A stretch of DNA of 64,000 bases from assembly GCA_030018935.1 (NCBI GenBank), contig JASEGZ010000006.1:2579-66578 (forward strand). Reading direction: 5' to 3'. This DNA comes from Syntrophales bacterium (GTDB lineage Bacteria > Desulfobacterota > Syntrophia > Syntrophales > CG2-30-49-12). The notes below the pieces were generated by a model. The model saw only the letters and a list, made by a program, of their open reading frames with translations, did not search any database and was not told the DNA's origin. The position numbers were made by a program, and so were the translations under genes. Below are positions 10,793 through 56,518 of the stretch, one piece after another; position 1 is the first letter of the stretch; every line of letters begins with the position of its first letter.

Positions 10793-10796
10793 TAAC

Positions 10797-13304
<2,508 letters not shown>

Positions 13305-13306
<2 letters not shown>

Positions 13307-16189: not shown

Positions 16190-16195
16190 CAGTAA

Positions 16196-16890: not shown

Positions 16891-16984
16891 AACAGTGTAG
16901 GAATTTCTCTCGACATGATGAGCACAGACGATCAGACCATTTAACTTAAGCTTTTAAATTAAAAGCAACGATTAAATAGGGGAA

Positions 16985-17180: not shown

Positions 17181-17267
17181 TCTCATAGGTGTTAGATAAA
17201 TACCAGAAAAACAGCTATTTGTGTGTATCTGCGAAAGTTTATGTCGTAATTAAATGGGTTAGTGTTT

Positions 17268-17304
17268 CTTATTGTGGTTAATTTTGTTAATACCACAAAA
17301 TAAG
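17268..17304. promoter_or_regulatory. imperfect palindrome upstream of copA (possible metalloregulator operator)
   Basis: cttattgtggttaa-ttttg-ttaataccacaaaataag, located ~95 nt upstream of the copA start. Confidence 0.25.
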
Positions 17305-17397
17305 ATTTTTTTAAAGAAATATTTACGAGGGAAAGGATAACATGAAAACAATAGGCGAGAGGCAAGGGGCAATATCCCATCACCCATTGCCTGTGTC

Positions 17398-24171: not shown

Positions 24172-24202
24172 TCTTTTTTACAATTGCAGGGAATACCCTG
24201 AT

Positions 24203-24227
24203 GTAGCCGCAGGCTTTAGCCTGCGCC
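24203..24227. repeat. GTAG-REP hairpin, copy 2
   Basis: gtagccgcaggctttagcctgcgcc, identical to the reverse complement of 8250-8274 and of 54254-54278. Confidence 0.8.
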
Positions 24228-24294
24228 TTAACACCGATGAATGCGTATTTTGTCAATAATCTTAGGGTAAGTTGGACTATCTGTCAATGCGATT

Positions 24295-41520: not shown

Positions 41521-41526
41521 GATATT

Positions 41527-41577
41527 AAGTCATACGTCTTATGACTTATGACTTATGACTTACGACTTACGACTTAA
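41527..41577. repeat. tandem heptamer array (CTTATGA/CTTACGA), inverted relative to 40400-40482
   Basis: aagtcatacgt cttatga cttatga cttatga cttacga cttacga cttaa. The units are the reverse complement of GTCATAA/GTCGTAA. Confidence 0.9.
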
Positions 41578-41591
41578 TTTCAGGGGGCCAG

Positions 41592-42791: not shown

Positions 42792-42794
42792 TTT

Positions 42795-43790
42795 ATGCTC
42801 TATCTTCATGGTCTAGGTCATTTTTTCCCAGAAAACATCATTACCAATCAGTTTCTCGAAGAGCTGGATATAGGAACGACCGATGAGTGGATTCTCGAGA
42901 GGGTCGGTATCCGCACCCGCCACACGGTTCTTCCTCTGGATTATATAAAGATGACAAAAAACCGCGATATACGGGCGGCGCTTGAAGCCAGCATGTATAA
43001 TCATGCCCAGATAGGAGCCGCTGCTGCCCGGATGGCCCTTGAGCAGGCTGGAATCAAAAAAGAAGATATCGGGCTTCTCATCTCGGGGAGTTCCGCTCCC
43101 GATAATGTCTCCCCTGCAGAGGCATCTGTCATCGCGGCGGAATTGGAAATCGAAGTCCCCGGCTTTGATATGCACTCGGCCTGTTCGACTTTCGGCATGC
43201 AGATCAATTTCCTTAATAAGATGAAGCCGGAGGCGTTGCCCCCTTTCACCTTAGTGGTTGTCCCGGAAACCAGCACTCTTTGTATGAATTATTCTGATCG
43301 AAGTAGCGCCGTGCTTTTCGGTGATGCGAGCGCCGCTGCTGTCGTATCCACTACCGTCCCTTCACGGATAGCCTGTATTACATCTGATTTTGGTGCGAAA
43401 CCCTCAGACTGGGACAAGGTGAATGTCCCCCGGCTGGACTACTTCCGGCAGGACGGGAATGCAGTGCAGAAATTTGCCATTCGTAAGACGGCGGAATTGT
43501 TACGTCAGTTGTTACCGTCTTTTCCTGTAAAGGCGGAGCGCTTAAAATTTATCGGCCATCAGGCAAATTGGGGTATGCTGCGTACTGTCTGTGAGCTTAC
43601 GGGTATCGAGGAAGATAATCACTGGTCCAATGTGGTGGATTTCGGCAATACGGCGGCGGCCGGCGCCCCCGGTGTCTTGAGCCAACACTGGCATGAACTC
43701 CGCCCCGGGGATTATATCGCCATTATTGTGGTAGGAGCGGGACTTTCCTGGTCTCCTCTAATGCTGAGGGTGGAAGAAGAGACGCAATAG
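42795..43790 (+). CDS. KAS III-type (FabH-like) 3-oxoacyl synthase
   Basis: Cys-His-Asn triad contexts DMHSACSTFG, GHQANWGML, FGNTAAAGAP. Confidence 0.85.
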   Translation: MLYLHGLGHFFPENIITNQFLEELDIGTTDEWILERVGIRTRHTVLPLDYIKMTKNRDIRAALEASMYNHAQIGAAAARMALEQAGIKKEDIGLLISGSSAPDNVSPAEASVIAAELEIEVPGFDMHSACSTFGMQINFLNKMKPEALPPFTLVVVPETSTLCMNYSDRSSAVLFGDASAAAVVSTTVPSRIACITSDFGAKPSDWDKVNVPRLDYFRQDGNAVQKFAIRKTAELLRQLLPSFPVKAERLKFIGHQANWGMLRTVCELTGIEEDNHWSNVVDFGNTAAAGAPGVLSQHWHELRPGDYIAIIVVGAGLSWSPLMLRVEEETQ

Positions 43791-43800
43791 GAGGTGGTTT

Positions 43801-44535
43801 ATGAGCGAGAAACCGGTCGCCATTGTAACCGGCGGTGGCACGGGTATCGGCGCTACATGCTGTCGAGCCCTTGGAAAGGTGGGATTCCGGGTATGCATTC
43901 ACTACCGGGGCAGTGAGGATGAGGAGGGGGCAAAGGCCGTTCTTTCTGAAGTCAGGGATAGTTTTCTTCTCCAGGCAGACCTGACAGATCTCGATCAGGT
44001 GGAAGCGATGGTTTCCCATTTAAAAGGGGCATCAGAGGAGGTTGAAGTTTTAGTCAACAATGCGGGAATTACCATCAATAGCGCAATCAACGGGATGAAA
44101 ATTGCGGAATTCGACGCGCAACGCGCCATGGTACGGGGCGTCTGGTACCTTACCAAACGAATATTGCGTTTATTCTTGCTCCGGAAGAACAGGGGACGTA
44201 TCATAAATATATCCAGTGTCGTGGGACACACGGGTAACGCCGGTCAGATCCCCTACACGATGGAAAAGGCAGCCCTCGATGCCTTTACAAAATCCCTGGC
44301 CAAGGAGTTGGTCGGGCGCAATATCCTGGTAAATTCAGTTGCTCCGGGGTTTATTGATACGGGCATGACGGAACATCTGCCGAAAGAGGTGCGGGAAAGG
44401 GTCCTTGCCGGCATCCCTCTGGGCCGTATGGGACGTCCCGAGGAAGTGGCCGAGGTGGTAGCCTTTCTCGCGACAGGCGCCTCTTACATTACCGGTAGTG
44501 TTATCCATGTAAACGGGGGGCTGTACGGTGGCTGA
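43801..44535 (+). CDS. fabG: 3-oxoacyl-ACP reductase (SDR)
   Basis: TGGGTGIG, NNAG, S...YxxxK (PYTMEKAAL), PGFIDT. Confidence 0.9.
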   Translation: MSEKPVAIVTGGGTGIGATCCRALGKVGFRVCIHYRGSEDEEGAKAVLSEVRDSFLLQADLTDLDQVEAMVSHLKGASEEVEVLVNNAGITINSAINGMKIAEFDAQRAMVRGVWYLTKRILRLFLLRKNRGRIINISSVVGHTGNAGQIPYTMEKAALDAFTKSLAKELVGRNILVNSVAPGFIDTGMTEHLPKEVRERVLAGIPLGRMGRPEEVAEVVAFLATGASYITGSVIHVNGGLYGG

Positions 44536-44577
44536 GGATTTGGTTCCGGCTTGTCCGGGTTAGGGAGTTATTTATAG

Positions 44578-45855
44578 ATGAGAAACAGAGTTGTCGTAAC
44601 AGGCATGGGGGTTGTGGCCCCCAATGCCCATGGTTTAGATAACTTTGAGGCGGCTCTCCGGGAGGGTCGCTCAGGCATTCGATTTTTGCTGGAGCTTGCG
44701 GCATTAAATTTCTCCTGTCAGATAGGTGGTATTCCCCAGGATTTTGAGAGTATCCGGCAGAGATATTTTGACGAGGAAAAACTGCTCTCGATGAATGACA
44801 ATATTGGGTATGCCTCCGTTGCCTCCGTGGATGCCTGGAATGATGCAGGTCTTATCGTACCCGACCCTGAAGGTGAAGTAGTGGATTGGGACACGGGTGT
44901 AATCGTCGGCTCCGGCATCGGCGGCATGGATACGATTGCCAAGATACTTGTTCCCATGGTTAACGAGGGTAAGAGCCGCCGTCTGGGAAGCACCGTTGCG
45001 GAACAGGTCATGCACAGCGGAACCAGCGCCCGTATTGCCGGCTTACTGGCATTGGGAAACCAGGTAACCTCAAATTCCTCCGCCTGTAGTACAGGAAACG
45101 AGGCGATAATAGATGCCACGTGGAGGATCCGTGTAGGGTTGGCCAAACGTATCCTGGCCGGCGGATCTGAAGGGGCGTCTCCCTATATATGGGCCGGTTT
45201 TGATGCGATGCGCGTCATCGCCCGCAAGTTTAACGACCGGCCGCAAGAGGCTTCACGACCCATGAGTGCAACGGCAAACGGTTTTGTCCCCAGCGCCGGG
45301 GCGGCTATTCTTATGCTTGAAGAATTAGAGTGCGCTTTGCAGCGTGGGGCGCGCATATACGCAGAGGTTATTGGAGGATATGTTAACTGTGGCGGACAGA
45401 GGACCGGTGGTTCTATGACAGCTCCCAATCCAGATGGGGTAAGGCGCTGTATCAGAGGCGCTATCGCTGATGCAGGCATTGATGCCCGTCAGATAGACAG
45501 TATTAACGGTCACCTGACTGCCACCTTTGCCGATCCCCTCGAGGTGAAGAACTGGTCAGAGGTCCTGGGACGCGGCCCCGGAGACTTTCCCTATATCAAT
45601 GCCACCAAGTCAGTAATCGGCCATTGCCTGGGAGCAGCCGGGGCTATAGAAAGTGTGGCGGTTGTTTTGCAGCTTTACAAAGGATTCCTTCATCCATCAC
45701 TTAATTGTGAGGATATCCACCCAGACATCGCTTCTTTCTCGGAGAAGGTACCGCGGACATGTATGGAGTTTCCAGCGTTGCGAATCATTGCCAAGGCGGC
45801 TTTCGGTTTTGGTGATGTCAACAGTTGCTTGATTTTTAAGAAATGGGAAGGATAA
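44578..45855 (+). CDS. KAS I/II-type (FabF/FabB-like) beta-ketoacyl synthase
   Basis: Active-site contexts SSACSTGNEAI, INGHLTAT, SVIGHCLGAAGAIE. Confidence 0.9.
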   Translation: MRNRVVVTGMGVVAPNAHGLDNFEAALREGRSGIRFLLELAALNFSCQIGGIPQDFESIRQRYFDEEKLLSMNDNIGYASVASVDAWNDAGLIVPDPEGEVVDWDTGVIVGSGIGGMDTIAKILVPMVNEGKSRRLGSTVAEQVMHSGTSARIAGLLALGNQVTSNSSACSTGNEAIIDATWRIRVGLAKRILAGGSEGASPYIWAGFDAMRVIARKFNDRPQEASRPMSATANGFVPSAGAAILMLEELECALQRGARIYAEVIGGYVNCGGQRTGGSMTAPNPDGVRRCIRGAIADAGIDARQIDSINGHLTATFADPLEVKNWSEVLGRGPGDFPYINATKSVIGHCLGAAGAIESVAVVLQLYKGFLHPSLNCEDIHPDIASFSEKVPRTCMEFPALRIIAKAAFGFGDVNSCLIFKKWEG

Positions 45856-45884
45856 TTTAAAAAAATTTTTACGAGGAGAAAAGT

Positions 45885-46142
45885 ATGGACGAAAAGAAAA
45901 TCTATGAAGAATTAACAAATATTTTGAGACTTTACGCAAAAAATCCAGAAGAGCTTGAAAAAGCTACGAGAGATACCCATATCTTAAATGATCTCAAGGT
46001 AAATTCCGCACGTCTCGTAGATGTTATTATCAAATGCGAGGATGTTTTTGGTATCAGCATAGAAGACGATGAGGCGGATAAAATAAGAACCATAGGAGAT
46101 GCACTGGAGATTATAAAGGGTAAAGTAGAAGTGACTGCTTAA
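45885..46142 (+). CDS. divergent acyl carrier protein
   Basis: 85 aa and acidic. The helix-II context LKVNSARLVDVIIKCEDVFGISIEDDE has a Ser in the phosphopantetheine position, in place of the canonical DSLD. Confidence 0.75.
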   Translation: MDEKKIYEELTNILRLYAKNPEELEKATRDTHILNDLKVNSARLVDVIIKCEDVFGISIEDDEADKIRTIGDALEIIKGKVEVTA

Positions 46143-46251
46143 TATCAGGGTATAATTAAGGCGAAAGTTTTTCGATGTCTCCAAAAATGTTATTAAGCAG
46201 GTATCATAATTCTTTGAAGGATAGTTTGTTTCCGATAAGTTCGGAGAATGG

Positions 46252-47082
46252 GTGATGATGACAAGTGTAACCAAAGGGCTTTTACAACTTCAATATATTC
46301 TGGGTTGGATGGCAATCTTTATCCTTGGCCCACTATATTTCACTGCCATCAAACTGATGAGATACCGGGTGAGGGGCCTCAAGGAACTCAGGCGGGAATT
46401 TTCCCTGCAACTCAAAAAGCATGAAGGTCCATGGATCATCTGTGCCAATCACCTGACGATGGTTGATTCTATGCTCTTAACCTATTCAATTGCATCGTTA
46501 TGCACCCACCTCAGGCATTATCGAGTGCTTCCGTGGAATTTACCGGAACGGGATAATTTTCAGCGGAGCATCTTCCTGACGGTGTTCTGTTACCTGGCCA
46601 AATGTATTCCTATCAATCGCGGCGGCGATCGCAAAGAAATGAAAAAGACACTCGATAAGTGTGCCTACCTCTTGAGGAAGAAGCAGCCTCTGATGATTTT
46701 CCCGGAGGGGGGGCGTTCCCGTACCGGCCGTGTGGATGCGGAAAATTTCTCTTACGGCGTGGGCCGTTTTATCAAGGATGTTGATAATTGTAAGGTTATG
46801 TGTATTTATCTCCGGGGTGACGGTCAGGAGACCTACGGGACAATTCCTAAGTTTGGTGAACGTTTTACCGCGCTCGTGAGTGTCCTCGAACCACAAAAGA
46901 CGGAGCATAGTGGTCTCCGCGCGCAACGATACTATGCCGAGGAAATTATAAAACGCTTGGCGCAACTGGAGGAAGATTACTTTGTCTTACGTGGGCAACG
47001 ATATAGTGGACTTGACCGATGCCGGTGCGAGGGGAAAGAGCCGGAATATACGCTTCGTCAACCGCGTTTTTATTCCAGATGA
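46252..47082 (+). CDS. PlsC-like lysophospholipid/1-acylglycerol-3-phosphate acyltransferase
   Basis: N-terminal TM segment, HX4D box (NHLTMVD) and FPEGGRSRTG. The last ~30 codons overlap the next gene and may not all be coding. Confidence 0.8.
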   Translation: MMMTSVTKGLLQLQYILGWMAIFILGPLYFTAIKLMRYRVRGLKELRREFSLQLKKHEGPWIICANHLTMVDSMLLTYSIASLCTHLRHYRVLPWNLPERDNFQRSIFLTVFCYLAKCIPINRGGDRKEMKKTLDKCAYLLRKKQPLMIFPEGGRSRTGRVDAENFSYGVGRFIKDVDNCKVMCIYLRGDGQETYGTIPKFGERFTALVSVLEPQKTEHSGLRAQRYYAEEIIKRLAQLEEDYFVLRGQRYSGLDRCRCEGKEPEYTLRQPRFYSR

Positions 47083-47662
47083 GCAGAGGCAAATATTTGA
47101 CTCTTCGCATCCCGATATCGTACTCTGGGCTTTGTGGGCCGGTAAGGAAACTGCGTATAAGATTATAAGAAAATCTATCTCTGGCGCTCCTTTCATACCG
47201 TTACTTTATAAAGTAAGCTGCCCAGAAAATTGTAAAAGGGCAGGCAGGTTTCCCCTCGAAAATGACCATATTCCTGGAATTACTGATACACCGTGGGGTA
47301 AAGTTACAATAAGAATCTTCATTACCTGCGATTACATACACTGTATCGGAACCATGGATCTTTCAGGAGGAATAGATTCAGTCGTCTGGAAGGTAGACCT
47401 TCTTCCTCCAGTCGCGGAAGCTATAGCGGAATATGAAGATGAATCGGCCTTTCTGCGTGAAACTATCAGAAGACATCTCTCGGTATTTCTGAATCGGACT
47501 CCAGAAGAAATTGAGATACGGCGTTCCGAAGGCGCCTTAGGCCCCCCCTTCGTATACTTAAAAGATAAGCCTGCCGGGATTGATATCAGTCTAAGTCATG
47601 ACGGCAAGTTTACCGCTTATGCCTTCATAATTTCCGGTGATAAGCTGTTCTCTATTTCTTAA
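46982..47662 (+). CDS. 4'-phosphopantetheinyl transferase
   Basis: VGNDIVDL, WAGKETAYK, ISLSHDGKFTAYAF. The start is uncertain (TTG 46982 or GTG 46991). It overlaps the acyltransferase ORF by ~100 nt. Confidence 0.7.
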   Translation: MSYVGNDIVDLTDAGARGKSRNIRFVNRVFIPDEQRQIFDSSHPDIVLWALWAGKETAYKIIRKSISGAPFIPLLYKVSCPENCKRAGRFPLENDHIPGITDTPWGKVTIRIFITCDYIHCIGTMDLSGGIDSVVWKVDLLPPVAEAIAEYEDESAFLRETIRRHLSVFLNRTPEEIEIRRSEGALGPPFVYLKDKPAGIDISLSHDGKFTAYAFIISGDKLFSIS

Positions 47663-47706
47663 ATTTATCAACTAAGCTTTGTAAACCAGAATTTTACGAA
47701 ATCATC

Positions 47707-48492
47707 ATGATTGCTGCCATAGAACGTTTAGGCGATGCCTCTCTCAACACAACCAGATCATTACGGGATACCATTTCCTTTGCCATGCGGGTCATTTTAA
47801 GGATGTTTGACAGAAAAACTTACAACAGCGCCATGAAGATGGTTCTCATCGATCAGATATATTTTACCTCTGTCCAGATTTTACCTTTATTTATAACTGC
47901 TTCGGTTATCTTTGGTTCACTTTTGACCGGCATCGTTTTTAAAGTTATTAAAGATTTGGGTTTGGTAGAATACTTAGGGCGCATCTTGATGGGTTTTGTG
48001 GTTACAGAAATGTCCCCCTTTATTACTGTAATGCTGATTGCCCTGCGGTCAAGTTCTGCCATTAATACCGAAGTTGCCGTGATGAAAGTCAATAAGGAAT
48101 TAAAAACGTTGGAAGTGTTTAATATTGATGTTATCAACTACCTGTTCTTACCAAGGATCATCAATGGTATGATATCACTTATCTTATTGAGCAGCCTTTT
48201 TTCCATTGTGGTTTTGACAAGCGGTTTATTATTCTCCAGGATTATACTGGGGATGAGTCTGGACGCTTATACCCGTGTTCTATTAACTTCGGTTGATTTT
48301 TCTGATATAATTATTCTCATTTTAAAATGTGCCACCTTTGGCTTTTTTATTACATTACTTCCCATACGATGCGGTATGACTGCTTCCAACGAGTTGACAA
48401 GTATCCCCGTTTCGGTCTTAAATGGGATGGTAAAGGTCTTTATCTCTATCGTGATCATTGAGGTGCTGACATTAATCGCAAGGTCTATTTAA
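47707..48492 (+). CDS. mlaE: MlaE-family ABC transporter permease
   Basis: 261 aa and multi-TM, with typical MlaE/YrbE layout and conserved region (QIYFTSVQILPLFITASVIFG). Confidence 0.85.
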   Translation: MIAAIERLGDASLNTTRSLRDTISFAMRVILRMFDRKTYNSAMKMVLIDQIYFTSVQILPLFITASVIFGSLLTGIVFKVIKDLGLVEYLGRILMGFVVTEMSPFITVMLIALRSSSAINTEVAVMKVNKELKTLEVFNIDVINYLFLPRIINGMISLILLSSLFSIVVLTSGLLFSRIILGMSLDAYTRVLLTSVDFSDIIILILKCATFGFFITLLPIRCGMTASNELTSIPVSVLNGMVKVFISIVIIEVLTLIARSI

Positions 48493-48527
48493 GGCTCTTT
48501 GAAGACAGAGATATACTCAACAGAGAG

Positions 48528-48953
48528 TTGGAAGAATTTATCACAGAAAACAAAGGGCGGCTGGGTTTGGTTTCCCTTGATGCGCCTCTCATCTCGAACC
48601 TTGATGTATGGATCAATATTGCCCTGATCAGGGAGTATCACCAGAATCTACCGAGAACGGAAGCGGAGGATATGGTCTTTGAATATCTGCGAAGATATGG
48701 CATGGAAAACACGGCATATAAAAGAAACTCTGCTTTAACTAACAGAGAGCGGTTTTGTGCGATGCTTTTGAGGGCCGCGATGGTCGCGGATGCCGTCATC
48801 GTGATTGACAGACCTTTTACGATAATACCGGATCTTAAAGATGCCTCCTTTATTGACGAGGCCATAAAAACGAGCGACGATCTGTTTACACAGTGCCATA
48901 TTTTCGACTATACATGGAACAAAGACCGTTACAGGATGAGTGATGCCTGCTAA
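48528..48953 (+). CDS. N-terminally truncated, degenerate ABC ATPase (MlaF position) lacking a Walker A
   Basis: Only the Q-loop-to-Walker-B part is recognisable: RLGLVSLDAPLISNLDVWINIAL, degenerate signature ALTNRERFCAMLLRA, and Walker-B-like VIVIDRPF. The frame is open back to the mlaE stop, but there is no room for a P-loop. Confidence 0.6.
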   Translation: MEEFITENKGRLGLVSLDAPLISNLDVWINIALIREYHQNLPRTEAEDMVFEYLRRYGMENTAYKRNSALTNRERFCAMLLRAAMVADAVIVIDRPFTIIPDLKDASFIDEAIKTSDDLFTQCHIFDYTWNKDRYRMSDAC

Positions 48954-49863
48954 AAAAATTGAATTCAAAGTTGGGTTGTTTATCATTGTGACGACACTAT
49001 TGATCATTGGCTCCTTAGGGTATGTAGCCTATAAAAAGGGAATCTTTGAGGAAGTACATACCTTTACCCTCTCGTCGAAATCGGGCGAAGAACTGACAGA
49101 GGGGATGCCCGTCGTTTTTGCGGGTTTCAAGATAGGTGTTGTCCATAGCTTAGAGCTCAGTGAGAACGGAAGTGTTATTATCAAGATCAGGGTACCGGAA
49201 CGTCACGTCAAGTGGATAAGGTCAGACAGCAGGTTCATCGTCAATAAACCTTTCATCGGTTCCTCCCGTATTGTCGTCTTGACGGATGACTTGGGCAGTC
49301 CTGTGTTGTCAAAGGAAAAAGTGCCAGAGGTGACCACAGCCAGTGACATCAACGAGGCGATAAAGAAACTCCAGCCAATCTTTGAAGAAGTGAATAAGAT
49401 AACGGCAAATGTCGAAAAAGTGACGGCGAATCTGGCTGATCCCCAGGGCGACGTGCGGAAAATTCTGAGAAACTCCGAGCAAATCACCGCTCAAGTTGAT
49501 TCCATCCTTAAAGACGATGTGCGAGAAATTTTGAAAAACTCCGAGCAAGTCACCGTCCGGGTTGATTCCATCCTTCAAAAGGTGGATACGATGGCGGCAA
49601 AGACTGATGAAACGATGTACGGGAAAGAGGGACTTCTGTCCCTGGTGCGCAAAATCCTTGAAGACTTGCTTGTTAAGCTTGGGAGAATAGATGCCGCCCT
49701 TGATAATGTCGTCAAGATCAGCGCTGATACGGCTGACGCCACAACGGATCTTAGACTATTGAGAAGCGAGATCGAGGCGACCGTGAATTCTATTAACGAC
49801 ATGGTAAAGGAATTGAACAGAAAGATACCCTTTAAAGAGAAACCTGAGATAAAACTTCCATGA
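48940..49863 (+). CDS. mlaD: MlaD/MCE-domain protein with an extended helical C-terminus
   Basis: N-terminal TM anchor (VGLFIIVTTLLIIGSLGYVAY), MCE domain (GMPVVFAGFKIGVVHSLEL), and helical repeats in the C-terminal half. Confidence 0.8.
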   Translation: MMPAKKIEFKVGLFIIVTTLLIIGSLGYVAYKKGIFEEVHTFTLSSKSGEELTEGMPVVFAGFKIGVVHSLELSENGSVIIKIRVPERHVKWIRSDSRFIVNKPFIGSSRIVVLTDDLGSPVLSKEKVPEVTTASDINEAIKKLQPIFEEVNKITANVEKVTANLADPQGDVRKILRNSEQITAQVDSILKDDVREILKNSEQVTVRVDSILQKVDTMAAKTDETMYGKEGLLSLVRKILEDLLVKLGRIDAALDNVVKISADTADATTDLRLLRSEIEATVNSINDMVKELNRKIPFKEKPEIKLP

Positions 49864-50522
49864 AGATATTTTTATGTTTATTCGCTTTTTCTATCTTGCT
49901 TGTCGGGTGCGGAGCAAAGCCTGTCCCTAACTGGAAAAATGTGAGCTTCCATCAACTGGAAAGTTATAAAAAGAGCTATTTAATCGGCAAGGTGAGGATC
50001 GCCGAACTCCACTTCTCTAAAGCCATAGAAGAGATAAAGAAAAGCGGCGATCTGAACATCCTGGCCATGGCTTACCTGACAAAATACGCCGTAAACGTCG
50101 CTGTCCTTGAGGATTTCGATGATCGTGATTATTTACAGATAGACTCTGTGCAACATGATCCTAAGAACAAGAACTTTTACAACTTTTTAAAAGGTGTCTT
50201 TGATCAGGTTGATGAAAGGTTGCTTCCCGGGGAGTACAGGAATTTCCTCAAGACTCTCAGGCATGGGAGGGAGGGTGCAATGGAACAGGAAATTGCCAAC
50301 ATAGAGGATCCCCTCTCGAAACTCATTGCCACCGGTTTGCTTGTGCGACATCACAGGTGCCCTGAGATGATTTTGCAGGTCGCTGCCGATACGGCTTCAG
50401 CGAACGGGTGGAAGAAGGCCCTCGTGGCCTATCTCGAAAAGCTTCAGTCCATCTACGAAGCAAAAAAAGAGATGGAAAAAGCAGCCAATGTTCAAAAGAG
50501 GCTCCAGCTTATAAAGAATTAA
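49860..50522 (+). CDS. lipoprotein of unknown function, last gene of the Mla-like operon
   Basis: Lipobox LLVGC. The start overlaps the mlaD stop (ATGA). Confidence 0.6.
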   Translation: MKIFLCLFAFSILLVGCGAKPVPNWKNVSFHQLESYKKSYLIGKVRIAELHFSKAIEEIKKSGDLNILAMAYLTKYAVNVAVLEDFDDRDYLQIDSVQHDPKNKNFYNFLKGVFDQVDERLLPGEYRNFLKTLRHGREGAMEQEIANIEDPLSKLIATGLLVRHHRCPEMILQVAADTASANGWKKALVAYLEKLQSIYEAKKEMEKAANVQKRLQLIKN

Positions 50523-50661: not shown

Positions 50662-50937
50662 ATGAGCATTACGGTAATAATTCCGGGTTCATTGAAAGAC
50701 TGGTTCGGTAGCAGTGATCAGGCTACCTGTGAGGGGAAAACCATGGGGGAGTGCATTGATGATCTTGACAGTAAATTCCCCGGCTTTAGACGCAGAGTGG
50801 TTGATGAAAAAGGGGGGATCAGTAGTTCTGTCATGATCTTCCTTGATGGACAGAACCTCCGATCACTGGACGGGCTGGCCACTCCTGTGAAGGATGGCGA
50901 TGAGGTAAGCATTATTCCTTTTGCGGCAGGGGGGTGA
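50662..50937 (+). CDS. MoaD/ThiS-family ubiquitin-like beta-grasp protein with a C-terminal Gly-Gly
   Basis: 91 aa, ending ...VKDGDEVSIIPFAAGG-stop. RBS gaagga lies upstream of the ATG. Confidence 0.8.
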   Translation: MSITVIIPGSLKDWFGSSDQATCEGKTMGECIDDLDSKFPGFRRRVVDEKGGISSSVMIFLDGQNLRSLDGLATPVKDGDEVSIIPFAAGG

Positions 50938-51469
50938 TAAAAAAAAGATGATTGTAGACAAACCGGAGTCCCATTTTATCTTTGTCTTCCACCCAAAAAT
51001 CTTCGAGGGCAAGAAGTACACGGTATATGAGGGCAAAGAGCTCACCAACGGTGAGGTTCTTCAATACTGGGGGAAGTGGATTGTCCTGGGAGAAAGGCCA
51101 TGGCTTGATGAATTGGCCCGAAAGCTTGACCGGTACGTAGAAGAGGAGGTAATCCCCTGTATCAAATATGATCGCAACCCTTCTGTGAACCTTGGTCTGG
51201 CAGAAGCTGTCATGATGGTGTACTGCGACAGGCGCAAAAGTGAGGAGATCTGGCAGATACTCCGGCAGCATGGGGTAAGGATCAAGGCCTGGGTCTCGGA
51301 ACGGGAGACGATGGAGATGTGGAAACCCGGCGGAGTACTGTTGGAACGGTGGATTGCCTCAATGAATCTCGATGAAGAGGAGGCCAGGGCTACCCGGGAG
51401 GATGCAGGAACAAGCCTGGGTTATATTTTTGATCACCCCGACGAGATCTTTTCCCCTTGGGCACAGTGA
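50921..51469 (+). CDS. uncharacterised 173-182-aa protein translationally coupled to the Ubl gene
   Basis: Clean ORF. The likely start is the ATG at 50948 (MIVDKPES...), 11 nt after the Ubl stop. The motif run GKWIVLGERPWLDELARKL...VMMVYCD...WVSERETMEMW faintly recalls DUF1917/BLES03-like proteins. This resemblance is from memory only and unverified. Confidence 0.6.
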   Translation: MRQGGDKKKMIVDKPESHFIFVFHPKIFEGKKYTVYEGKELTNGEVLQYWGKWIVLGERPWLDELARKLDRYVEEEVIPCIKYDRNPSVNLGLAEAVMMVYCDRRKSEEIWQILRQHGVRIKAWVSERETMEMWKPGGVLLERWIASMNLDEEEARATREDAGTSLGYIFDHPDEIFSPWAQ

Positions 51470-51509
51470 AGATAAACGGTGTGGTATTTGAAATCTTAAG
51501 GGAGGGAAC

Positions 51510-52388
51510 ATGGTTGACTTTGCAAAACAGTTGAAGGTTCCATCACTGGACCCCTACTTTTTTGTCCTCGAGGAGGACAGGATTAACATGGACAGGCTGG
51601 AGAAGCTCTCGGAGAGGCATCCGATTAACATCCTCATAACTGGTAATCAGGGGTGCGGTAAATCCTCTCTAATAAGACAGTTTGCCAGTTATTATCAGAG
51701 ACCTATGGCCATCTTTCAGGTAGGGCTCCTTTTAGAGGCCGGGCAGCTTTTTGGGCAGCAGAGGTTGAAAGATGGTGAAACCTTTTATCAGAGTTTCTTA
51801 TTTCCCAGGGTCATTCGTGTCCCAGGGTGTGTCATCCATCTGGAAGAGATCAACAGGTCTGAGAACCCCCATGCCTTGAATGAGCTCTTTTCGGTACTGT
51901 CAGAGGAGCGAAGCATCTGGATTGATGAGCTTGGCCTTGTTGAGGTAGCTCCCCGGGTGATCTTTTTTGCCACCATGAATGAAGGTGTAGAATTTTCAGG
52001 TACGGATGAACTGGATGCCGCCCTGAAGGACCGGTTTTACCGCATCCGTCTTGAATACCCTCCTGTAAGTATAGAAAAGGAGATCCTTGTCCTTAAAACT
52101 GGCGTTTCCCCGTCTGTGGCGGGTGACATTCTCAACATAGTGAATAAATTGAGAAGCAACAAACAGTCACCTATTGATATCTCTATAAGGCACAGCCTGA
52201 TGATTGCGGAACTTGCCGCCACGGGGGCGCCTTTACGGGAGGCCATTATCTATAGCCTTCAGATATCAATGGATATCCTCGAATCGTTGCTCCTTTCCAT
52301 CCATGTGGAAACGGGTGATACGGAGGTAGAACCCCGTCGTTACGAACGATATGTTCCACCAGGCTATATTCCGTCGCAGGGAGGTTGA
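51510..52388 (+). CDS. MoxR/AAA_5-type AAA+ ATPase (CobS/CbbQ/NorQ/CoxD-like)
   Basis: Walker A GNQGCGKS, Walker B VIHLEEIN, sensor ATMN, LKDRF; RBS ggaggg. Confidence 0.88.
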   Translation: MVDFAKQLKVPSLDPYFFVLEEDRINMDRLEKLSERHPINILITGNQGCGKSSLIRQFASYYQRPMAIFQVGLLLEAGQLFGQQRLKDGETFYQSFLFPRVIRVPGCVIHLEEINRSENPHALNELFSVLSEERSIWIDELGLVEVAPRVIFFATMNEGVEFSGTDELDAALKDRFYRIRLEYPPVSIEKEILVLKTGVSPSVAGDILNIVNKLRSNKQSPIDISIRHSLMIAELAATGAPLREAIIYSLQISMDILESLLLSIHVETGDTEVEPRRYERYVPPGYIPSQGG

Positions 52389-54151
52389 TACCGGTGAATA
52401 TCAAAATTGCCGAGAGTAATAATGCACCAGCCAAGAATTACATAGCTCCAGAAGGCCCTCAAAAGGCGTACTCCAGATACTGGCGGAAGAATTATTCCCG
52501 TCATGAGGCTACTGAGCTGGCTACAGTTCTGACTGCCATGCGCAAGGTAGCCGGTCACATCGGCATTAATGTCAAACCTGTTTTCTGGCGGGGCATGTCC
52601 GCTTCTCCAGATAATTCTATTGTCTTGGAGCCGGCTGAAGTCAGGGGAATGTATCCCGTTCCTTTCCGAAAAATTGACCTTCTGGTGGGGCAGGTTGTCC
52701 GCGAGGCCTTTGGGTGTATTGAATGGGGTGACTGGGTAAAAGACCAGGTCAAACAACGGCGCTCCCCATTACCGGAAGGGCTAAAAGATTATCTGAGTAG
52801 TTTTATCTCTGTCGTGGAAGACCTGTACATCGCTGAACTGGTCCGCCCCACCGTCTGGCACCTTTACCTCTCAAAATATTGGGGATTTCTTATCCGCAAA
52901 AGGGAAAGGGATCCTTCACTCCCGCCAACCGCAGCAAGTCTGGCGAGTATCTGGCGGGGAATGGTGTTCTTTCAAACCTTGCCCGATAATCTTCACCATT
53001 ACTATGACGATCTGATAGAAATCTTGCTGGAATATTCTCAGACCATTAGAGAGCTAAAGGGTCTTTCCACACTGGCCGAGAGGAGAAATAGAAGAGTCGA
53101 GATATACCTTGAGATGTGGGACCGCATTTGCTCGATCATTGAAGAGTGGGAAAAGTTTGTCCCCTCTCCCGATGGGGTGAATATTCAGGATGAGGCCGCC
53201 CCCAAGGTCAAAACGCCCGAGGCCTTGAGAGAAGAAAAGGAAGAGAATCCTGACCGGGATGATAATAAAGAAGAGGAGCCAGCGGGGCTTGATGAGGAAC
53301 TTGCCGCTCAGATCAGTTTCAAGCTGGATGAGGGAGAGTCTGATTTAACCCAGCATATATCGGTGGCTGTTGAGGATCCTCAGGCAAAGGCAATGAATAC
53401 AAGCTTCACCCGGGCAGTTGCCAAATGCAATGTAAGTGCAGATCAATCACAGGTGGAACGTTTAAAGAGAATATTCCAGAGACAGAAGGCCCTGATCAGA
53501 AGAGCGAGAATAAAAGGTATTATAAGGGGCGTGGATATGGGAAAGATAGATGCCCGGAGACTATATCGAGTACCTCTGGATGGTAAGATATTTAAAAGGA
53601 AAGACATTTCAGGTTCTGACTACTCATGGAACATCAGTATTGTAGCAGATGCCTCAGCCTCCATGGCAGGAAGGGGAATAACCGATAGAGCGTGGACGGT
53701 GGCGGAGCAGACCTTTGTCTCCCTTACGGAAGCGGCAAAGGGTTTCTTTAATCGTCTGGAGGTTTTCGGTTATCAGGAACAGACCCGCCAGTGCAATCTC
53801 GTACGGCTATACCAGGGAGGTGAATTATACACCATAATTCCTACAGGCCAGACCCCGACGGGTCAGGCAATCATAGCCGCCGCCATGCTCATGAAAAGGA
53901 ACGATAAAAGAAAGTTGATCATTCATATTACCGATGGGGCTGCAAATTGCGGGCTGAACGTGGTTGATGCCCTGGAGTACTGCCAGAAAAACAGGATCGA
54001 ACTCATAACTATCGGGTGCGGGTGTAATCTCCAGACAAGACAGTTTCTACTGGAACGGTATCCCCGGGGGACGGTTTATCTGATGGATGACATTCGGAAC
54101 TTACCGGAAGGTCTGGAAAATCTTTTTCGGGACAGGCTCTTAAAGAAGTAA
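52385..54151 (+). CDS. CobT/NorD/CoxE-like protein with an acidic linker and a C-terminal VWA (MIDAS) domain
   Basis: Acidic stretch EEKEENPDRDDNKEEEPAGLDEE. MIDAS elements VADASASM ... TPTGQA ... HITDGAAN. It overlaps the AAA+ stop. GTG at 52394 is the better-spaced start behind gggagg. Confidence 0.85.
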   Translation: MIPVNIKIAESNNAPAKNYIAPEGPQKAYSRYWRKNYSRHEATELATVLTAMRKVAGHIGINVKPVFWRGMSASPDNSIVLEPAEVRGMYPVPFRKIDLLVGQVVREAFGCIEWGDWVKDQVKQRRSPLPEGLKDYLSSFISVVEDLYIAELVRPTVWHLYLSKYWGFLIRKRERDPSLPPTAASLASIWRGMVFFQTLPDNLHHYYDDLIEILLEYSQTIRELKGLSTLAERRNRRVEIYLEMWDRICSIIEEWEKFVPSPDGVNIQDEAAPKVKTPEALREEKEENPDRDDNKEEEPAGLDEELAAQISFKLDEGESDLTQHISVAVEDPQAKAMNTSFTRAVAKCNVSADQSQVERLKRIFQRQKALIRRARIKGIIRGVDMGKIDARRLYRVPLDGKIFKRKDISGSDYSWNISIVADASASMAGRGITDRAWTVAEQTFVSLTEAAKGFFNRLEVFGYQEQTRQCNLVRLYQGGELYTIIPTGQTPTGQAIIAAAMLMKRNDKRKLIIHITDGAANCGLNVVDALEYCQKNRIELITIGCGCNLQTRQFLLERYPRGTVYLMDDIRNLPEGLENLFRDRLLKK

Positions 54152-54167
54152 CATTAGCAATCAATAG

Positions 54168-54313
54168 GCGTTCAGCTATCAGCTATCAGCAAAAGCAGAA
54201 AGATACAAGGGGAAGTCCACAACTCCGGGGGCAAGTTTTCCTGCGTAAGTTAAGGCGCAGGCTAAAGCCTGCGGCTACAATTTATTGATTGCTGATCGCT
54301 GATGGCTGAATGC
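54168..54313. repeat. long hairpin with 7-nt-periodic arms (CAGCTAT/GCTGATn) enclosing a GTAG-REP hairpin (54254-54278)
   Basis: gcgttcagctatcagctatcagcaa (54168-54192) pairs with ttgctgatcgctgatggctgaatgc (54289-54313). The inner ggcgcaggctaaagcctgcggctac is identical to 8250-8274. Confidence 0.75.
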
Positions 54314-54337
54314 TTGCATTAAGGTGGTGGTGAGGCC

Positions 54338-54479
54338 ATGGTGATTGGGGAGAGCACCGTTGTTAGTATGCATCTTACCCTGAAGGACCAGAGCGGAAGG
54401 GTGTTGGAGAGTACCATGGGCAGGAATGGAACTTCACTATGAGGTACAGATTCTGGATGTAAGGCCGGATAACCAGTAG
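54338..54479 (+). pseudogene. remnant of an FKBP-type (SlyD/FkpB-like) peptidyl-prolyl isomerase with its middle deleted
   Basis: MVIGESTVVSMHLTLKDQSGRVLEST... matches a SlyD-type N-terminus and stops at 54440. A second frame gives MELHYEVQILDVRPDNQ-stop, a typical FKBP C-terminal strand. About 100 central residues are absent. Confidence 0.55.
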
Positions 54480-54480
54480 T

Positions 54481-55686
54481 TTGTGCTCTACGGAAGACCG
54501 CGAATTTTCACCAGAGGCGATAGGTGATAGCCCCTTGCCTCAAATTTTTACTGACCGAGCAAGCCAGATGGAAGATGAAAGAGGCAATTTTGTAGATATC
54601 ACGCGGGAGAAGTTTTACCGGGCAGTGGCGGAGTGTAAGCCCCTCTTTGCCTGGTTTAGTCTCACCGATGCCTGTAACCTGAACTGCAAGTATTGTTTTA
54701 CCGATGCCAAGTACTATCCTCCGGGTTCCCCAGACCCCCCTCATCATGAATTGAGTACAGAAGAGGTATTTAGTATTATTGATAATATTGCCGAAGCGGG
54801 CACTGAGATAGTGATGTTTGCCGGGGGGGAACCAACCTTGAGGGAAGATCTGGTTGAGATAGTGAGATATGCATCCAGCCGGATACGTGTGGCGATGAAC
54901 AGTAACGGTTATCTTTTAGATGAGCGTCTCTGCCGGGATTTGGCAAGGGCTGGTCTTTCCCAGGTAAAGATTAGCGTGGATGGTATGGAAAAGAATCATG
55001 ACTGGAATAGAGGGGAAGGGTCTTTCCAGAGGACGATGGATGCTCTCAGGAACCTGGTGAAGGTCGGTGTTCCCAAGGTAATATTGATCATGACACTTAC
55101 GAACCTGAATTATGATGAGCTGGGGAAAATGGTAGAGCTCTCCATGAATATGGGGATGGATTTTACCATGGTTGAGTTTCTGCCGTTGGGGAGGGCCTCT
55201 GAGGGAAAAGAATGGACCTTATCAAAGGAGCAGTTGGAAAGGGCACAGCGGTACTTAGTGGAAGCGCAAGACCGGTATGGATGGCAGAAAGTGTCCTTTG
55301 AAAACCGCTATATTGTTGCCGAAGACGAATACTGTAAGAGGATCTGCGCTGATCCGAACGAACCTTGCAATTTTTACGATTTCTGCGTGGGGTGTGTCAG
55401 CGGCATATATAGTTACTCTATAACCGCTTCCGGGAAAGTGACGACGGGAGATATAATGACCCTGGAAGTGGGTGATTTAAAAAAGGAAAAATTAAAGGAT
55501 ATCTGGGAAAATGCGGAATTGCTTAAAGTTATAAGGAACAGGGAAAATCTGAAGGGCAAGTGTGGAAAATGCCAGTACAGATATATCTGCGGGGGGTGCA
55601 GGAGGAGGGCCTATACCTATACAAGCGATCTCATGGCTGCTGACCCAGGCTGCTGGAGAGGCGCAGGTGACAAATCCGAGACCTAA
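54481..55686 (+). CDS. radical SAM enzyme with a SPASM-type C-terminal Fe-S domain
   Basis: CNLNCKYC (CxxxCxxC), GGEPTL, and C-terminal CGKCQYRYICGGCRRRAY plus additional Cys (CVGCVSG). The start is uncertain (TTG 54481 or ATG 54568). Confidence 0.9.
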   Translation: MCSTEDREFSPEAIGDSPLPQIFTDRASQMEDERGNFVDITREKFYRAVAECKPLFAWFSLTDACNLNCKYCFTDAKYYPPGSPDPPHHELSTEEVFSIIDNIAEAGTEIVMFAGGEPTLREDLVEIVRYASSRIRVAMNSNGYLLDERLCRDLARAGLSQVKISVDGMEKNHDWNRGEGSFQRTMDALRNLVKVGVPKVILIMTLTNLNYDELGKMVELSMNMGMDFTMVEFLPLGRASEGKEWTLSKEQLERAQRYLVEAQDRYGWQKVSFENRYIVAEDEYCKRICADPNEPCNFYDFCVGCVSGIYSYSITASGKVTTGDIMTLEVGDLKKEKLKDIWENAELLKVIRNRENLKGKCGKCQYRYICGGCRRRAYTYTSDLMAADPGCWRGAGDKSET

Positions 55687-55695
55687 CAGAAAATG

Positions 55696-55756
55696 AGACT
55701 GAAGACTGAAGACTGTTAGGAGGCTATCAGGCTCCTTCAGCCTTCAGCCTTTAGCC
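55696..55756. repeat. 7-nt-periodic hairpin (GACTGAA / CCTTCAG arms)
   Basis: agactgaagactgaagactgtt-aggaggctatcaggct-ccttcagccttcagcctttagcc. Confidence 0.7.
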
Positions 55757-55771
55757 TAAATACCTAATAAT

Positions 55772-56518
55772 ATGCCTGAAGAGCCGGAAATGATAACCGA
55801 GGAAGAACTGAGGCGGTACAACCGACAGCTTTCCCTCATCGGGAGGGAGGGTCAGGAAAAACTCAAGAGGGCTAAAATTCTGATCGCCGGGGCGGGGGGG
55901 TTGGGCTCACCGATAGCCACATACCTTGCCTTTGCAGGCGTCGGGTGTATTGTAATCGCCGATAATGATACCGTTTCCGTGAGCAACCTCAACAGGCAAA
56001 CCCTACACTGGCCCTCCGACGTGGGCAGAAAAAAAACAGCCTCAGCAGAAGAAAAGATACGGGCCATGAACCCTGATGTGGAGGTAGAGGTGATCTCCTG
56101 CACGATTGGGGAAACAAATGTAGACGAGATTGTGGGGGATGCCGACTTGATCGTTGATGCGCTGGACAATTTTCCCGCCAGATATCTCCTGAACAGTGTT
56201 GCCGTTACACGTCATATCCCCTTTTTTCACGGCGCCGTCAGGGGATTCCACGGCCAGGTCATGACAGTTATACCTCACCAGACGGCCTGCCTTAGATGCG
56301 TCTTTCCCCAGAGTCCTCCCGCGGAAACCTTCCCGATCATCGGGGTGACCCCTGGTGTGATCGGTTCCATCCAGGCGACCGAGGTCATTAAGTACCTTAC
56401 GGGTAAAGGAGAACTGCTGACAAACAGATTGTTGCTCTGGGACGGCCTGTCAGGGGAGATGAATTTCCTCCAAGTGAAGAGAAATCCGTCCTGTCAGGAT
56501 TGTAGTCGGGGAAAGTAA
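55772..56518 (+). CDS. ThiF/MoeB/HesA-family E1-like adenylyltransferase (no rhodanese domain)
   Basis: RYNRQL, Rossmann GAGGLGS, DxD..NLNRQ, two CxxC pairs (CLRC, CQDC). The crossover loop reads TFPIIGV, so it lacks the Cys found in E. coli MoeB (TCVEAGV). Confidence 0.9.
   Translation: MPEEPEMITEEELRRYNRQLSLIGREGQEKLKRAKILIAGAGGLGSPIATYLAFAGVGCIVIADNDTVSVSNLNRQTLHWPSDVGRKKTASAEEKIRAMNPDVEVEVISCTIGETNVDEIVGDADLIVDALDNFPARYLLNSVAVTRHIPFFHGAVRGFHGQVMTVIPHQTACLRCVFPQSPPAETFPIIGVTPGVIGSIQATEVIKYLTGKGELLTNRLLLWDGLSGEMNFLQVKRNPSCQDCSRGK

Follow-up and report, generated by a model that had tools for sequence, protein, structure and literature searches.

A six-gene module of a Syntrophales bacterium that combines a ubiquitin-like protein, an E1, and a putative BssE/BssF-type AAA+/VWA pair is a candidate toolkit for fumarate-adding glycyl-radical enzymes

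In aquifers, sediments, and oil reservoirs, degradation of alkanes and alkylbenzenes without oxygen begins with fumarate-adding glycyl-radical enzymes (GREs). Here we describe a module of six co-directional open reading frames (ORFs), g1 to g6, at positions 50662-56518 on the + strand of a 64,000-nucleotide stretch of DNA from a Syntrophales bacterium (GenBank assembly GCA_030018935.1, contig JASEGZ010000006.1, positions 2,579 to 66,578 of the forward strand; we refer to this whole stretch as the window). We propose that the module is a detached maturation or maintenance toolkit for a fumarate-adding GRE, most likely an alkylsuccinate synthase that we infer to be encoded elsewhere in the genome of this organism; we put the probability of this role at roughly 55%, and our confidence in the chemistry of the module is lower than that. 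The proposal is carried by gene neighborhoods in other genomes, where g1, g2, and g6, encoding a ubiquitin-like protein (Ubl), a signature protein of 173 amino acids (aa), and an E1 adenylyltransferase, make up a conserved triad that occurs either inside fumarate-adding GRE clusters or in association with them. g2 is the most diagnostic gene of the set. The six genes are as follows:

50662..50937, + strand: g1, MoaD/ThiS-type Ubl, 91 aa, matching PF02597, C-terminus ...DEVSIIPFAAGG
50948..51469, + strand: g2, putative distant BLES03-like protein, 173 aa, the signature gene of the module, placed by homologue set, predicted fold, and profile match
51510..52388, + strand: g3, MoxR-class AAA+ ATPase (AAA_5, 2e-19), putative BssE-type paralogue
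52385..54151, + strand: g4, VWA protein (VWA, 7e-6) with a metal-ion-dependent adhesion site (MIDAS), 588 aa, putative BssF-type paralogue
54568..55686, + strand (ORF opens at 54481): g5, radical S-adenosylmethionine (SAM) enzyme with a SPASM domain (Radical_SAM, 3e-34), 372 aa
55772..56518, + strand: g6, MoeB/ThiF-type E1 adenylyltransferase (ThiF, 7.8e-78), 248 aa

A preliminary description of this DNA, made from the letters alone, had listed the same six co-directional genes, and all of them are present in the ORF list of the window with small corrections of their starts. For the second gene it had allowed 173 to 182 aa; we retained the 173-aa form, which opens at ATG 50948, as nearly all full-length homologues are 173-178 aa long, and dropped the longer start. 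The start of g5 is most likely ATG 54568, giving 372 aa, because its homologues are about 370 aa long, and g4 may alternatively start at GTG 52394, behind a GGAGG. Genes g1 to g4 follow one another at spacings of 10, 40, and about 5 nucleotides (or with a 4-nucleotide overlap at the last junction) and are preceded by Shine-Dalgarno sequences. The module proteins were searched against Pfam and NCBIfam profiles using curated cutoffs.

We scanned one genome per species from 185,579 species for g2 and found it in 87 stretches, or about 0.05% of species. Judged from the titles of the matching stretches, the carriers are nearly all strict anaerobes, including Smithella and other Syntrophaceae, Desulfosarcina alkanivorans, D. 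widdelii, and D. variabilis, along with Desulfobacula, Desulfotomaculum, Desulfatiglandales, Desulfatibacillaceae, and Dehalococcoidia, and the g2 of Desulfosporosinus sp. Tol-M sits on a contig titled 'bssA'. Many such lineages degrade hydrocarbons anaerobically, which has been confirmed for Smithella (PMC5606693, PMC4208337).

To survey the neighborhoods of g2, we compared reference proteins with all ORFs of 84 loci, and the counts given here are over the 82 loci that are non-redundant. The Ubl adjoins g2 in 78 of the 82; within 10 kb of g2, an AAA+ gene occurs in 53 loci and a VWA gene in 49, and an E1 gene is found near g2 in 38 (44 by clustering). A marker of fumarate-adding GREs lies no more than 10 kb from g2 in 30 of the 82 loci, and in 20 of the 35 that have at least 8 kb of sequence on both sides. 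In the first contexts examined, the Ubl and g2 genes stood directly downstream of a set that comprises PFL-like/Gly_radical genes, the BssC_TutF and BssB_TutG small subunits, an AAA_5 ATPase, a VWA protein, a PNPOx-like protein, DUF4125, and a ferredoxin-domain radical SAM activase with benzylsuccinate synthase activase as its best NCBIfam match. Because NCBIfam has no model of the alpha subunit, neighboring enzymes were assigned as fumarate-adding through BssC_TutF, BssB_TutG, and the BssD-like activase. The recurrent gene orders are Ubl-g2-E1 (11), Ubl-g2-AAA-VWA (10), the order of the window (5 including the window itself), and variants of AAA-VWA-Ubl-g2; locus L069 reads BssE-like, g2, Ubl, BssF-like, and locus L087 reads GRE, Ubl, g2, E1. 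Unsupervised clustering of neighbors added methylmalonyl-CoA-mutase-like, MeaB, AMP ligase, acyl-CoA dehydrogenase, PrpD, and NMO genes and a sigma-54/PAS regulator, and these clustered catabolic neighbors are genes of the alkylsuccinate route. The preliminary description had seen no obvious client gene, a statement that must be revised for the relatives, in which the Ubl-g2 and AAA+/VWA pairs are embedded in fumarate-adding GRE clusters.

The g2 sequences themselves also follow the neighboring enzyme. Copies beside AssA-like enzymes are 62-67% identical to that of the window and copies beside BssA-like enzymes 42-55%, and the g2 proteins of three Desulfosarcina species are just 42-46% identical to one another. 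By these identities, g2 subfamilies track the type of the neighboring enzyme rather than taxonomy, and the window copy falls in the alkane-type group. In some genomes the gene is multiplied: g2 is in tandem triplicate after Ubl-E1 in the Dehalococcoidia locus L072 (1370-3252), it is duplicated in Desulfosporosinus sp. Tol-M (L059, 10001-11500), and several loci hold two or three copies of Ubl/E1 or g2. It is possible that such multiplication reflects several clients or specificities per genome. Further proteins recur in the GRE clusters, namely a DUF4037 protein (308 aa, L001 18013-18939), a DUF4125 protein (about 190 aa, L002 10594-11169), a 128-aa protein (L001 8262-8648), and a 561-aa GAF-like protein (L001 14061-15746). 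The 308 aa of the DUF4037 protein match the 307 aa of Azoarcus BssJ (PMC5874301), a likeness in size alone.

We collected 110 homologues of g2, nearly all of them 173-178 aa long, 42-96% identical, and none of them named. Searching with 25 members of the family returned no Pfam or NCBIfam family even at E≤10. An alignment of 25 sequences has 24 invariant columns, which include S8, Y24, W41-G42-K43, K73-D75-R76, D94-R96, and K113-W115. The AlphaFold (AF2) model of g2 is of very high confidence, with a predicted local distance difference test score (pLDDT) of 94.6, and its top Foldseek match was human BLES03/C11orf68 (1ztp), a weak match at E 2e-3 and a template modeling (TM) score of 0.41 over 107 columns; eIF4E structures and small ferredoxin-like proteins ranked next. 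When a profile built from 58 members was searched against the PDB, it likewise ranked BLES03 first, again weakly (E 0.01), with the GKW, AK[YV]S, and CVYxDD motifs aligned; in this alignment GKW falls on G127-K128-W129, K73 on K159, and Y92/D94 on Y175/D177. Among 1.84 billion representatives, the g2 profile matched 151 proteins at E≤1e-3; a wider family of proteins of about 135 aa has g2 residues from about 35 to 140 in common, and one distant relative, P0384, reaches 2.8e-4 and 21.3 bits with Pfam Bles03 (PF08939), under the cutoff of 23.1. BLES03 has been argued, by computation only, to share its fold and the catalytic Lys and Tyr (K159, Y175) with SpvC-type phosphothreonine lyases (PMC4159009). 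By transitivity, the residues that are invariant across the g2 superfamily would correspond to the proposed catalytic positions of BLES03. Together, the predicted fold and the profile alignment are consistent with, but weak evidence for, g2 being a prokaryotic BLES03-like protein, distantly related, with the eIF4E/phosphothreonine-lyase fold. The preliminary description had called g2 a protein that could not be placed; it is right that g2 has no family match of its own, and the fold and profile comparisons now give it a weak BLES03-like placement. We also considered g2 as a MoaE, E2, or JAB protein and rejected this, as there was no such fold among 584 Foldseek matches and no PDB or Pfam sequence match.

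Gene fusions tie g2 to the same set of partners. Protein P0364, found on three contigs from three sources, is g2 fused to a full-length BssF-like protein, and its BssF-like part is 28% identical to g4 residues 28-586 (E 3e-62); in P0357, the partner of g2 is DUF4125, which is regularly found in the GRE clusters. The link of g2 to the Ubl is one of adjacency, and that to BssF is one of fusion. Distant g2/BLES03-like members are fused to TIR, Macro, nucleotidyltransferase, and PD-(D/E)XK domains (P0476, P0394, P0373/P0428, and P0382), and these architectures hint at a domain that binds a nucleotide or a phosphorylated ligand in conflict-type systems.

Comparison with the GRE clusters suggested an identity for the AAA+/VWA pair. 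The AAA+ and VWA genes placed behind the GRE genes in L001 and L002 encode proteins to which g3 is 55-57% and g4, over its full length, 30-31% identical. A second such pair stands right after Ubl-g2 in L001; it is closer to the genes of the window, at 65% identity for g3 and 43% for g4, and the two pairs are present together in several clusters. Among 55 relatives of g3, Walker A, Walker B, and the DRF motif are kept, and g3 itself also weakly matches CbbQ_C; g4 has an acidic linker and a C-terminal VWA/MIDAS domain, whose D-x-S-x-S, T, and D residues are kept in 53 relatives. By sequence, then, g3 and g4 are paralogues of the AAA+/VWA pair that stands behind the GRE genes, in the bssE/bssF position, and belong to a distinct sub-lineage that follows Ubl-g2. 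BssE and BssF have no NCBIfam or Pfam model, and orthology with them is drawn from gene position. Both partners matter in toluene degradation: bssE encodes an essential AAA+ protein, and disruption of bssF, which encodes a VWA-family protein, abolishes growth on toluene, the functions of both being described as unknown (PMC7285207, PMC5874301). Characterized MoxR/VWA pairs insert cofactors or metal into, or remodel, a specific enzyme rather than degrade it (PMC9976466, PMC8718961). The CobS/CobT label that had been given to g3 and g4 did not survive the profile searches, with g4 scoring 21.8 bits on TIGR02442 (cutoff 779) and g3 having its best match in GvpN at 60 bits (cutoff 267). A cobalt chelatase was accordingly rejected, as the model scores are far under their cutoffs and cobN is not among the conserved neighbors.

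The Ubl, g1, matches PF02597 at 51.3 bits and 1.7e-13 (cutoff 22.5), is narrowly above the cutoff of TIGR01687, moaD_arch (52.5 versus 49.5 bits), and is below that of the SAMP1 equivalog NF041918 (52.6 bits versus 60). Its C-terminus, IIPFAAGG, places Gly-Gly at the very end, so that the earlier call of a GG-terminated MoaD/ThiS Ubl stands. In most loci the tail reads DE-x-x-I-I-P-x-A-A-G-G; among the relatives, 43 end in AAGG, 13 in AAAG, and the rest in another x-GG, in AAG, or in FAGA/FAAA, with the Ala endings belonging to Dehalococcoidia-type Ubls (FAGA in three, FAAA in one). Because AAAG and Ala endings occur, the Gly-Gly tail rule is relaxed in Ubls linked to g2. g6 passes only the superfamily model PF00899 (ThiF, 7.8e-78); its best NCBIfam match is MoeB, and it falls under every NCBIfam E1 equivalog cutoff (PRK08762 (MoeB) 279 versus 449; PRK08328 261 versus 339; UbaA 230 versus 450; PRK05690 224 versus 266; ThiF TIGR02356 214 versus 275). 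Across 43 E1s linked to g2, which are about 250 aa long, the nucleotide-binding motif and the catalytic Asp are kept and the Zn Cys4 site is 88% conserved, whereas a conserved crossover-loop Cys and a rhodanese domain are both lacking. This agrees with the picture already drawn for g6 itself (two CxxC pairs, no rhodanese domain, no crossover-loop Cys). The pattern is that of MoeB and would be compatible with an enzyme that carries out adenylation only.

The last member of the module, g5, is the least regular. Its best NCBIfam matches are AhbD/NirJ2 (1e-60), with an alignment over the full length that includes the SPASM Cys cluster, and it also matches MoaA-type and tungsten-cofactor maturase models at 1e-30 to 1e-33. 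An AhbD haem b synthase was rejected on 206 bits with TIGR04545, whose cutoff is 500. Homologues of g5 have a taxonomic spread that overlaps that of g2, and the gene occurs in just about 7 of the 82 g2 loci, with the family in the module at L079 and L053. Elsewhere, three more distant g5-like genes are found in a Peptococcaceae locus (L089) with a radical SAM gene and a BssF-like VWA gene beside a mutase; in Desulfosporosinus (L090), where a ThiF gene comes first and a ferredoxin-domain (activase-like) radical SAM gene is immediately ahead of the g5-like gene; and in a Nitrospinota locus (L091) that runs GRE, activase, g5-like, a second SPASM gene, AAA_5, VWA. Because these contexts hold GRE, activase, AAA+, and VWA genes, we place g5 in the same guild.

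The six genes also recur as a unit. The gene order of the window is repeated in four Syntrophaceae/Smithella loci (L005, L007, L010, and L011), and L006, L008, and L009 have the same order minus g5 only. The Mla/MnmG flanks of the module are common to the window and L005 only, and the flanks of L007, L010, and L011 differ; since the flanks are conserved only in L005, the Smithella module evidently stays together in other surroundings. In a different phylum, the Dehalococcoidales locus L079 packs the same six families tightly in another order, rSAM/SPASM-AAA-VWA-Ubl-E1-g2. The co-occurrence in L005, L007, L010, L011, and L079 answers the concern, raised with the preliminary description, that the six genes might never be found together elsewhere. 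The same description had regarded the genes as one module distinct from canonical molybdenum cofactor, thiamine, and cobalt chelatase operons, and the equivalog cutoffs and the neighbors bear this out, as neither moaE nor thiG nor cobN is among the conserved g2 neighbors. Clustering of these neighbors also returned no rhodanese, cysteine desulfurase, JAMM/JAB, or E2 gene, so that the lack of an E2 or JAB component noticed in the window holds among the relatives as well.

Within the module of the window, g4 and g5, and g5 and g6, are separated by spacers with the following features:

54153..54313, no strand assigned: long hairpin, repetitive extragenic palindromic (REP)-like, in the g4-g5 spacer, with arms of 25 nucleotides that are 88% complementary
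54338..54477, + strand: remnant of an FKBP/SlyD-type gene in two frames with an internal stop, from translations read by eye
55696..55757, no strand assigned: hairpin of CTGAAG-type repeats in the g5-g6 spacer, from fold energy

The fold energy is -68.6 kcal/mol for positions 54165-54314, with z = -6.6, and -28.6 kcal/mol for positions 55687-55771, with z = -3.9, and the hairpin repeats that had been seen in both spacers are real by these values. The core of the g4-g5 hairpin is a palindrome at 54249-54279 with further copies in the window at 24202-24232 and 8248-8276, and the repeat type of the g5-g6 hairpin (55699-55747) has another copy at 10747-10786. The window thus holds two families of short palindromic REP-like intergenic elements, with one copy of each in the two spacers of the module. 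The FKBP remnant reads MVIGESTVVSMHLTLKDQSGRVLEST... up to a stop in one frame and ELHYEVQILDVRP in another; its N- and C-terminal pieces are in different frames and the middle is gone, its identity coming from reading the translations only, and no intact FKBP gene is found at the g4-g5 position in the relatives compared. Because L005, the closest relative, lacks the spacer, we consider the g4-g5 spacer with its remnant to be a recent insertion that lies outside the system.

How might such a set of proteins act on a radical enzyme? The MoeB-type E1 would adenylate the small-residue C-terminus of the Ubl, and the adenylate would be resolved by sulfide or persulfide to give a Ubl thiocarboxylate or, less likely, by a lysine. 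As the E1 has neither a thioester Cys nor a rhodanese domain, resolution by sulfide or persulfide is the simplest route, and a sulfide-based reaction is plausible in sulfidic or methanogenic anaerobes. g2 would be the dedicated receiver of the Ubl tail, a part comparable to that of MoaE or ThiG although the fold is different, with its conserved Lys/Tyr/Trp/Arg beta-sheet face as the binding or reaction site. g2 could dock on the VWA protein, whose MIDAS would hold the client, either the succinate synthase or its Fe-S small subunits, and the MoxR hexamer would remodel this client for modification or for insertion of a cluster or subunit. In the lineages that carry it, the SPASM enzyme might add a radical step on the same client. 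A more far-reaching version, which we consider improbable, is that g2 is an active enzyme of the BLES03/phosphothreonine-lyase type and that, together with the Ubl thiocarboxylate, it performs a new post-translational sulfur chemistry on the GRE or its small subunits while the AAA+/VWA pair holds and remodels the client. One possibility would be an elimination that gives a dehydro-amino acid, to which the thiocarboxylate sulfur is then added, with a radical step by the SPASM enzyme in some lineages. If this were true, the strictly anaerobic alkyl- and benzylsuccinate synthases would undergo a modification or assembly step that has so far escaped notice and that could explain why they are hard to reconstitute.

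Several observations weigh against a role in GRE maturation or maintenance. No GRE gene is present among the approximately 45 large ORFs of the 64-kb window that were profiled (about 15 further ORFs lie outside that set), and a marker of fumarate-adding enzymes is missing from the 10 kb around g2 in 15 of the 35 well-flanked loci. Some g2 loci stand amid housekeeping genes, for example L085 and L086 in Firmicutes and L072 in Dehalococcoidia. Denitrifying toluene degraders, which have bssE and bssF, are absent from the g2 matches, so these enzymes do not need the triad in every case. There is no sulfur-mobilizing gene (rhodanese or cysteine desulfurase) and no JAMM protease among the conserved neighbors, some Ubl tails terminate in Ala rather than Gly, and a fusion of g2 to the N-terminus of an EngA/Der-type double GTPase (P0363 and four further cluster members, 635 aa, from several sources) fits no story of enzyme maturation and is left unexplained. 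The Smithella relatives have no GRE within 10 kb of the module. For Smithella M82_1 (L010) and SC-D17 (L046), assA clusters have been reported (PMC5606693, PMC4208337), and the presence of assA elsewhere in Smithella genomes that bear the module fits a helper module that has become detached from its client. In the open-access literature, we found no report that relevantly links glycyl-radical, benzylsuccinate, or alkylsuccinate synthases with ThiF, MoeB, or MoaD, and none that describes the content of assJ, assK, or assF; because the check covered open-access literature only, we call the module undescribed provisionally.

The strongest competing idea is that the Ubl is conjugated: once activated by the E1, it would be isopeptide-linked to a Lys of g2 or of the GRE, and the VWA/AAA+ pair would unfold or extract the tagged enzyme, for example one that is oxygen-damaged or radical-quenched. 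SAMP and TtuB are conjugated without an E2 or E3, and VWA domains elsewhere bind partners of the ubiquitin pathway, as does proteasomal Rpn10. g1 scores equally well against SAMP1 and MoaD, g2 has the invariant lysines K43, K73, and K113, the Ubl-g2-AAA-VWA order is tight and frequent, and the g2-VWA fusion exists. Conjugation of SAMP by UbaA, however, needs the crossover-loop Cys, which is not conserved in the E1s linked to g2, and neither a JAMM/JAB deconjugase nor an E2 is a conserved neighbor. Moreover, the MoxR/VWA pairs characterized so far act by insertion or remodeling and not by degradation, as already cited. Sulfur or cofactor maturation and Ubl conjugation coupled to an AAA+/VWA engine had both been put forward in the preliminary description; we judge conjugation to be fairly unlikely. 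A self-contained pathway to a sulfur-containing small molecule or cofactor for hydrocarbon metabolism, in which the thiocarboxylate, g2 as a 'synthase', and the SPASM enzyme supply a product that the AAA+/VWA pair inserts and which does not act on the GRE, appears distinctly doubtful to us. Its list of parts parallels MoaA/MoaD/MoaE/MoeB plus a CoxD/E-like inserter, g5 has the matches to MoaA-type and tungsten-cofactor maturase models, and the triad stands alone amid housekeeping genes in some genomes; yet the scarcity of g5 among the g2 loci, a Foldseek result in which g2 is unlike MoaE, ThiG, or CysM, an AAA+/VWA pair that is specifically of BssE/F type, and g2 subfamilies that track the GRE type all argue the other way.

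We weighed two further explanations. That g1 and g6 are an ordinary housekeeping MoaD/MoeB or ThiS/ThiF pair beside an unrelated MoxR/VWA pair might be suggested by the score of g1 on the MoaD_arch model and by MoeB as the best NCBIfam match of g6. Such a pair would not be expected to have an E1 that falls below all equivalog cutoffs, to have its Ubl tied to g2 in nearly every locus and never to moaE or thiG among the conserved neighbors, or to be limited to so small a fraction of species with multiple copies of Ubl/E1 or g2 at several loci, and we regard this explanation as very improbable. That the Ubl/E1 pair serves an anti-phage or conflict system similar to CBASS Cap2 or Bil seems hardly credible. 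The fusions of distant g2 superfamily members to TIR, Macro, nucleotidyltransferase, and PD-(D/E)XK domains and a weak match of the E1 to Cap2 E1 domains point in this direction, whereas PADLOC has no match for g1-g4 and only superfamily-level matches for g5 (viperin) and g6 (Cap2 E1 domain), the neighbors are catabolic rather than defense islands, and the module has no effector domain. We therefore retain the detached toolkit for a fumarate-adding GRE as our working interpretation.

The remainder of the window holds several other gene sets. Directly upstream of the module, at 40546-50522 (+ strand), is a fatty-acid-synthase-like set that comprises an acyltransferase, an acyl-CoA dehydrogenase, a ketoacyl-acyl carrier protein synthase (KAS) III, a ketoreductase, a KAS, and an acyl carrier protein, and continues with a lysophospholipid-type acyltransferase, a phosphopantetheinyl transferase, MlaE/MlaD-like genes, and a 220-aa lipoprotein-like ORF; because it is common to L005 only, it is probably a separate operon for lipid synthesis and transport. 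The genes gyrA, gyrB, dnaN, and dnaA are in a row at 8271-16189 (- strand) and 16190-17397, and the stretch of lowest guanine-cytosine (GC) content in the window, 0.34, lies beside them at 14-16 kb; this row and the low GC content suggest that the window probably spans the chromosomal replication origin region. Directly beside gyrA, at 6376-8227 (- strand), are an RtcB RNA ligase and its archease partner. Two ORFs of about 810 aa that were considered as GRE candidates are GyrA and GyrB, and a third candidate of 737 aa is an acetyl-CoA-synthetase-like ligase. An outer-membrane transporter of FadL/TodX type, a class that carries hydrophobic compounds, adjoins a DUF6125 protein at 1303-2610 and 2760-3821 (- strand), which would be compatible with uptake of hydrocarbons or fatty acids. 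A 456-aa ORF at 17398-18768 (+ strand) contains just two P-type ATPase domains, HMA and actuator, and is followed in the same direction by an ORF at 18858-19673, so that the two are possibly a split or frameshifted heavy-metal ATPase gene. Finally, an N6/N4 DNA methylase and a 318-aa protein without a Pfam family overlap by 4 nucleotides at 29577-31558 (+ strand) and are possibly a restriction-modification pair.

Placing a Ubl, an E1, and a BLES03-like partner in the neighborhood of GREs, together with the BssF fusion, yields testable hypotheses for the cargo of the AAA+/VWA pair and makes the genes of the module candidate helpers for co-expression to produce active enzyme. If our interpretation is correct, the GRE system would join the few bacterial pathways in which Ubl/E1 chemistry is employed, and the orphan human family BLES03/C11orf68 would gain a prokaryotic branch with a defined genetic context. 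Every domain of the module other than g2 comes from a known family, with g2 being a putative distant relative of BLES03; what appears to be new is the system, in which a Ubl/E1 pair with a BLES03-like protein is connected to the machine of BssE/F type that belongs to hydrocarbon-activating radical enzymes.

Set beside known systems, the g3/g4 pair is most similar to BssE/BssF (TutH and its partner), in which, as in the literature, a MoxR AAA+ protein is followed by a protein of about 580 aa with a C-terminal VWA domain (PMC7285207); unlike that pair, the pair in the window follows Ubl-g2 rather than the enzyme genes and has no GRE beside it. It resembles NorQ/NorD, CbbQ/CbbO, and CoxD/CoxE in joining an AAA_5 protein with a weak CbbQ_C match to a large adaptor with a C-terminal MIDAS VWA domain, and differs in its class of client, here a GRE. 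To our knowledge, no Ubl/E1 pair belongs to any of these three systems. The SPASM enzyme differs from its nearest models, AhbD and NirJ, in a context of GRE, AAA+, and VWA genes rather than haem synthesis. BLES03/C11orf68 is the top-ranked, though weak, match of g2 in both the fold and profile searches, with the GKW, AK[YV]S, and CVYxDD motifs aligned; g2 differs from it in having additional helices at the C-terminus and another set of invariant Trp and Arg residues, and lyase activity of BLES03 has itself been proposed by computation only. Finally, like MoaD-MoeB and ThiS-ThiF, SAMP-UbaA, and TtuB-TtuC, the module has a beta-grasp Ubl with a flexible small-residue tail and an E1 of about 250 aa with GxGGxG, the catalytic Asp, and the Zn Cys4 site. 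It departs from these systems in falling short of their equivalog cutoffs, in allowing AAAG, AGA, or AAA tails, in having a BLES03-like partner in place of MoaE, ThiG, TtuA, or a JAMM protease, and in its genomic link to radical enzymes.

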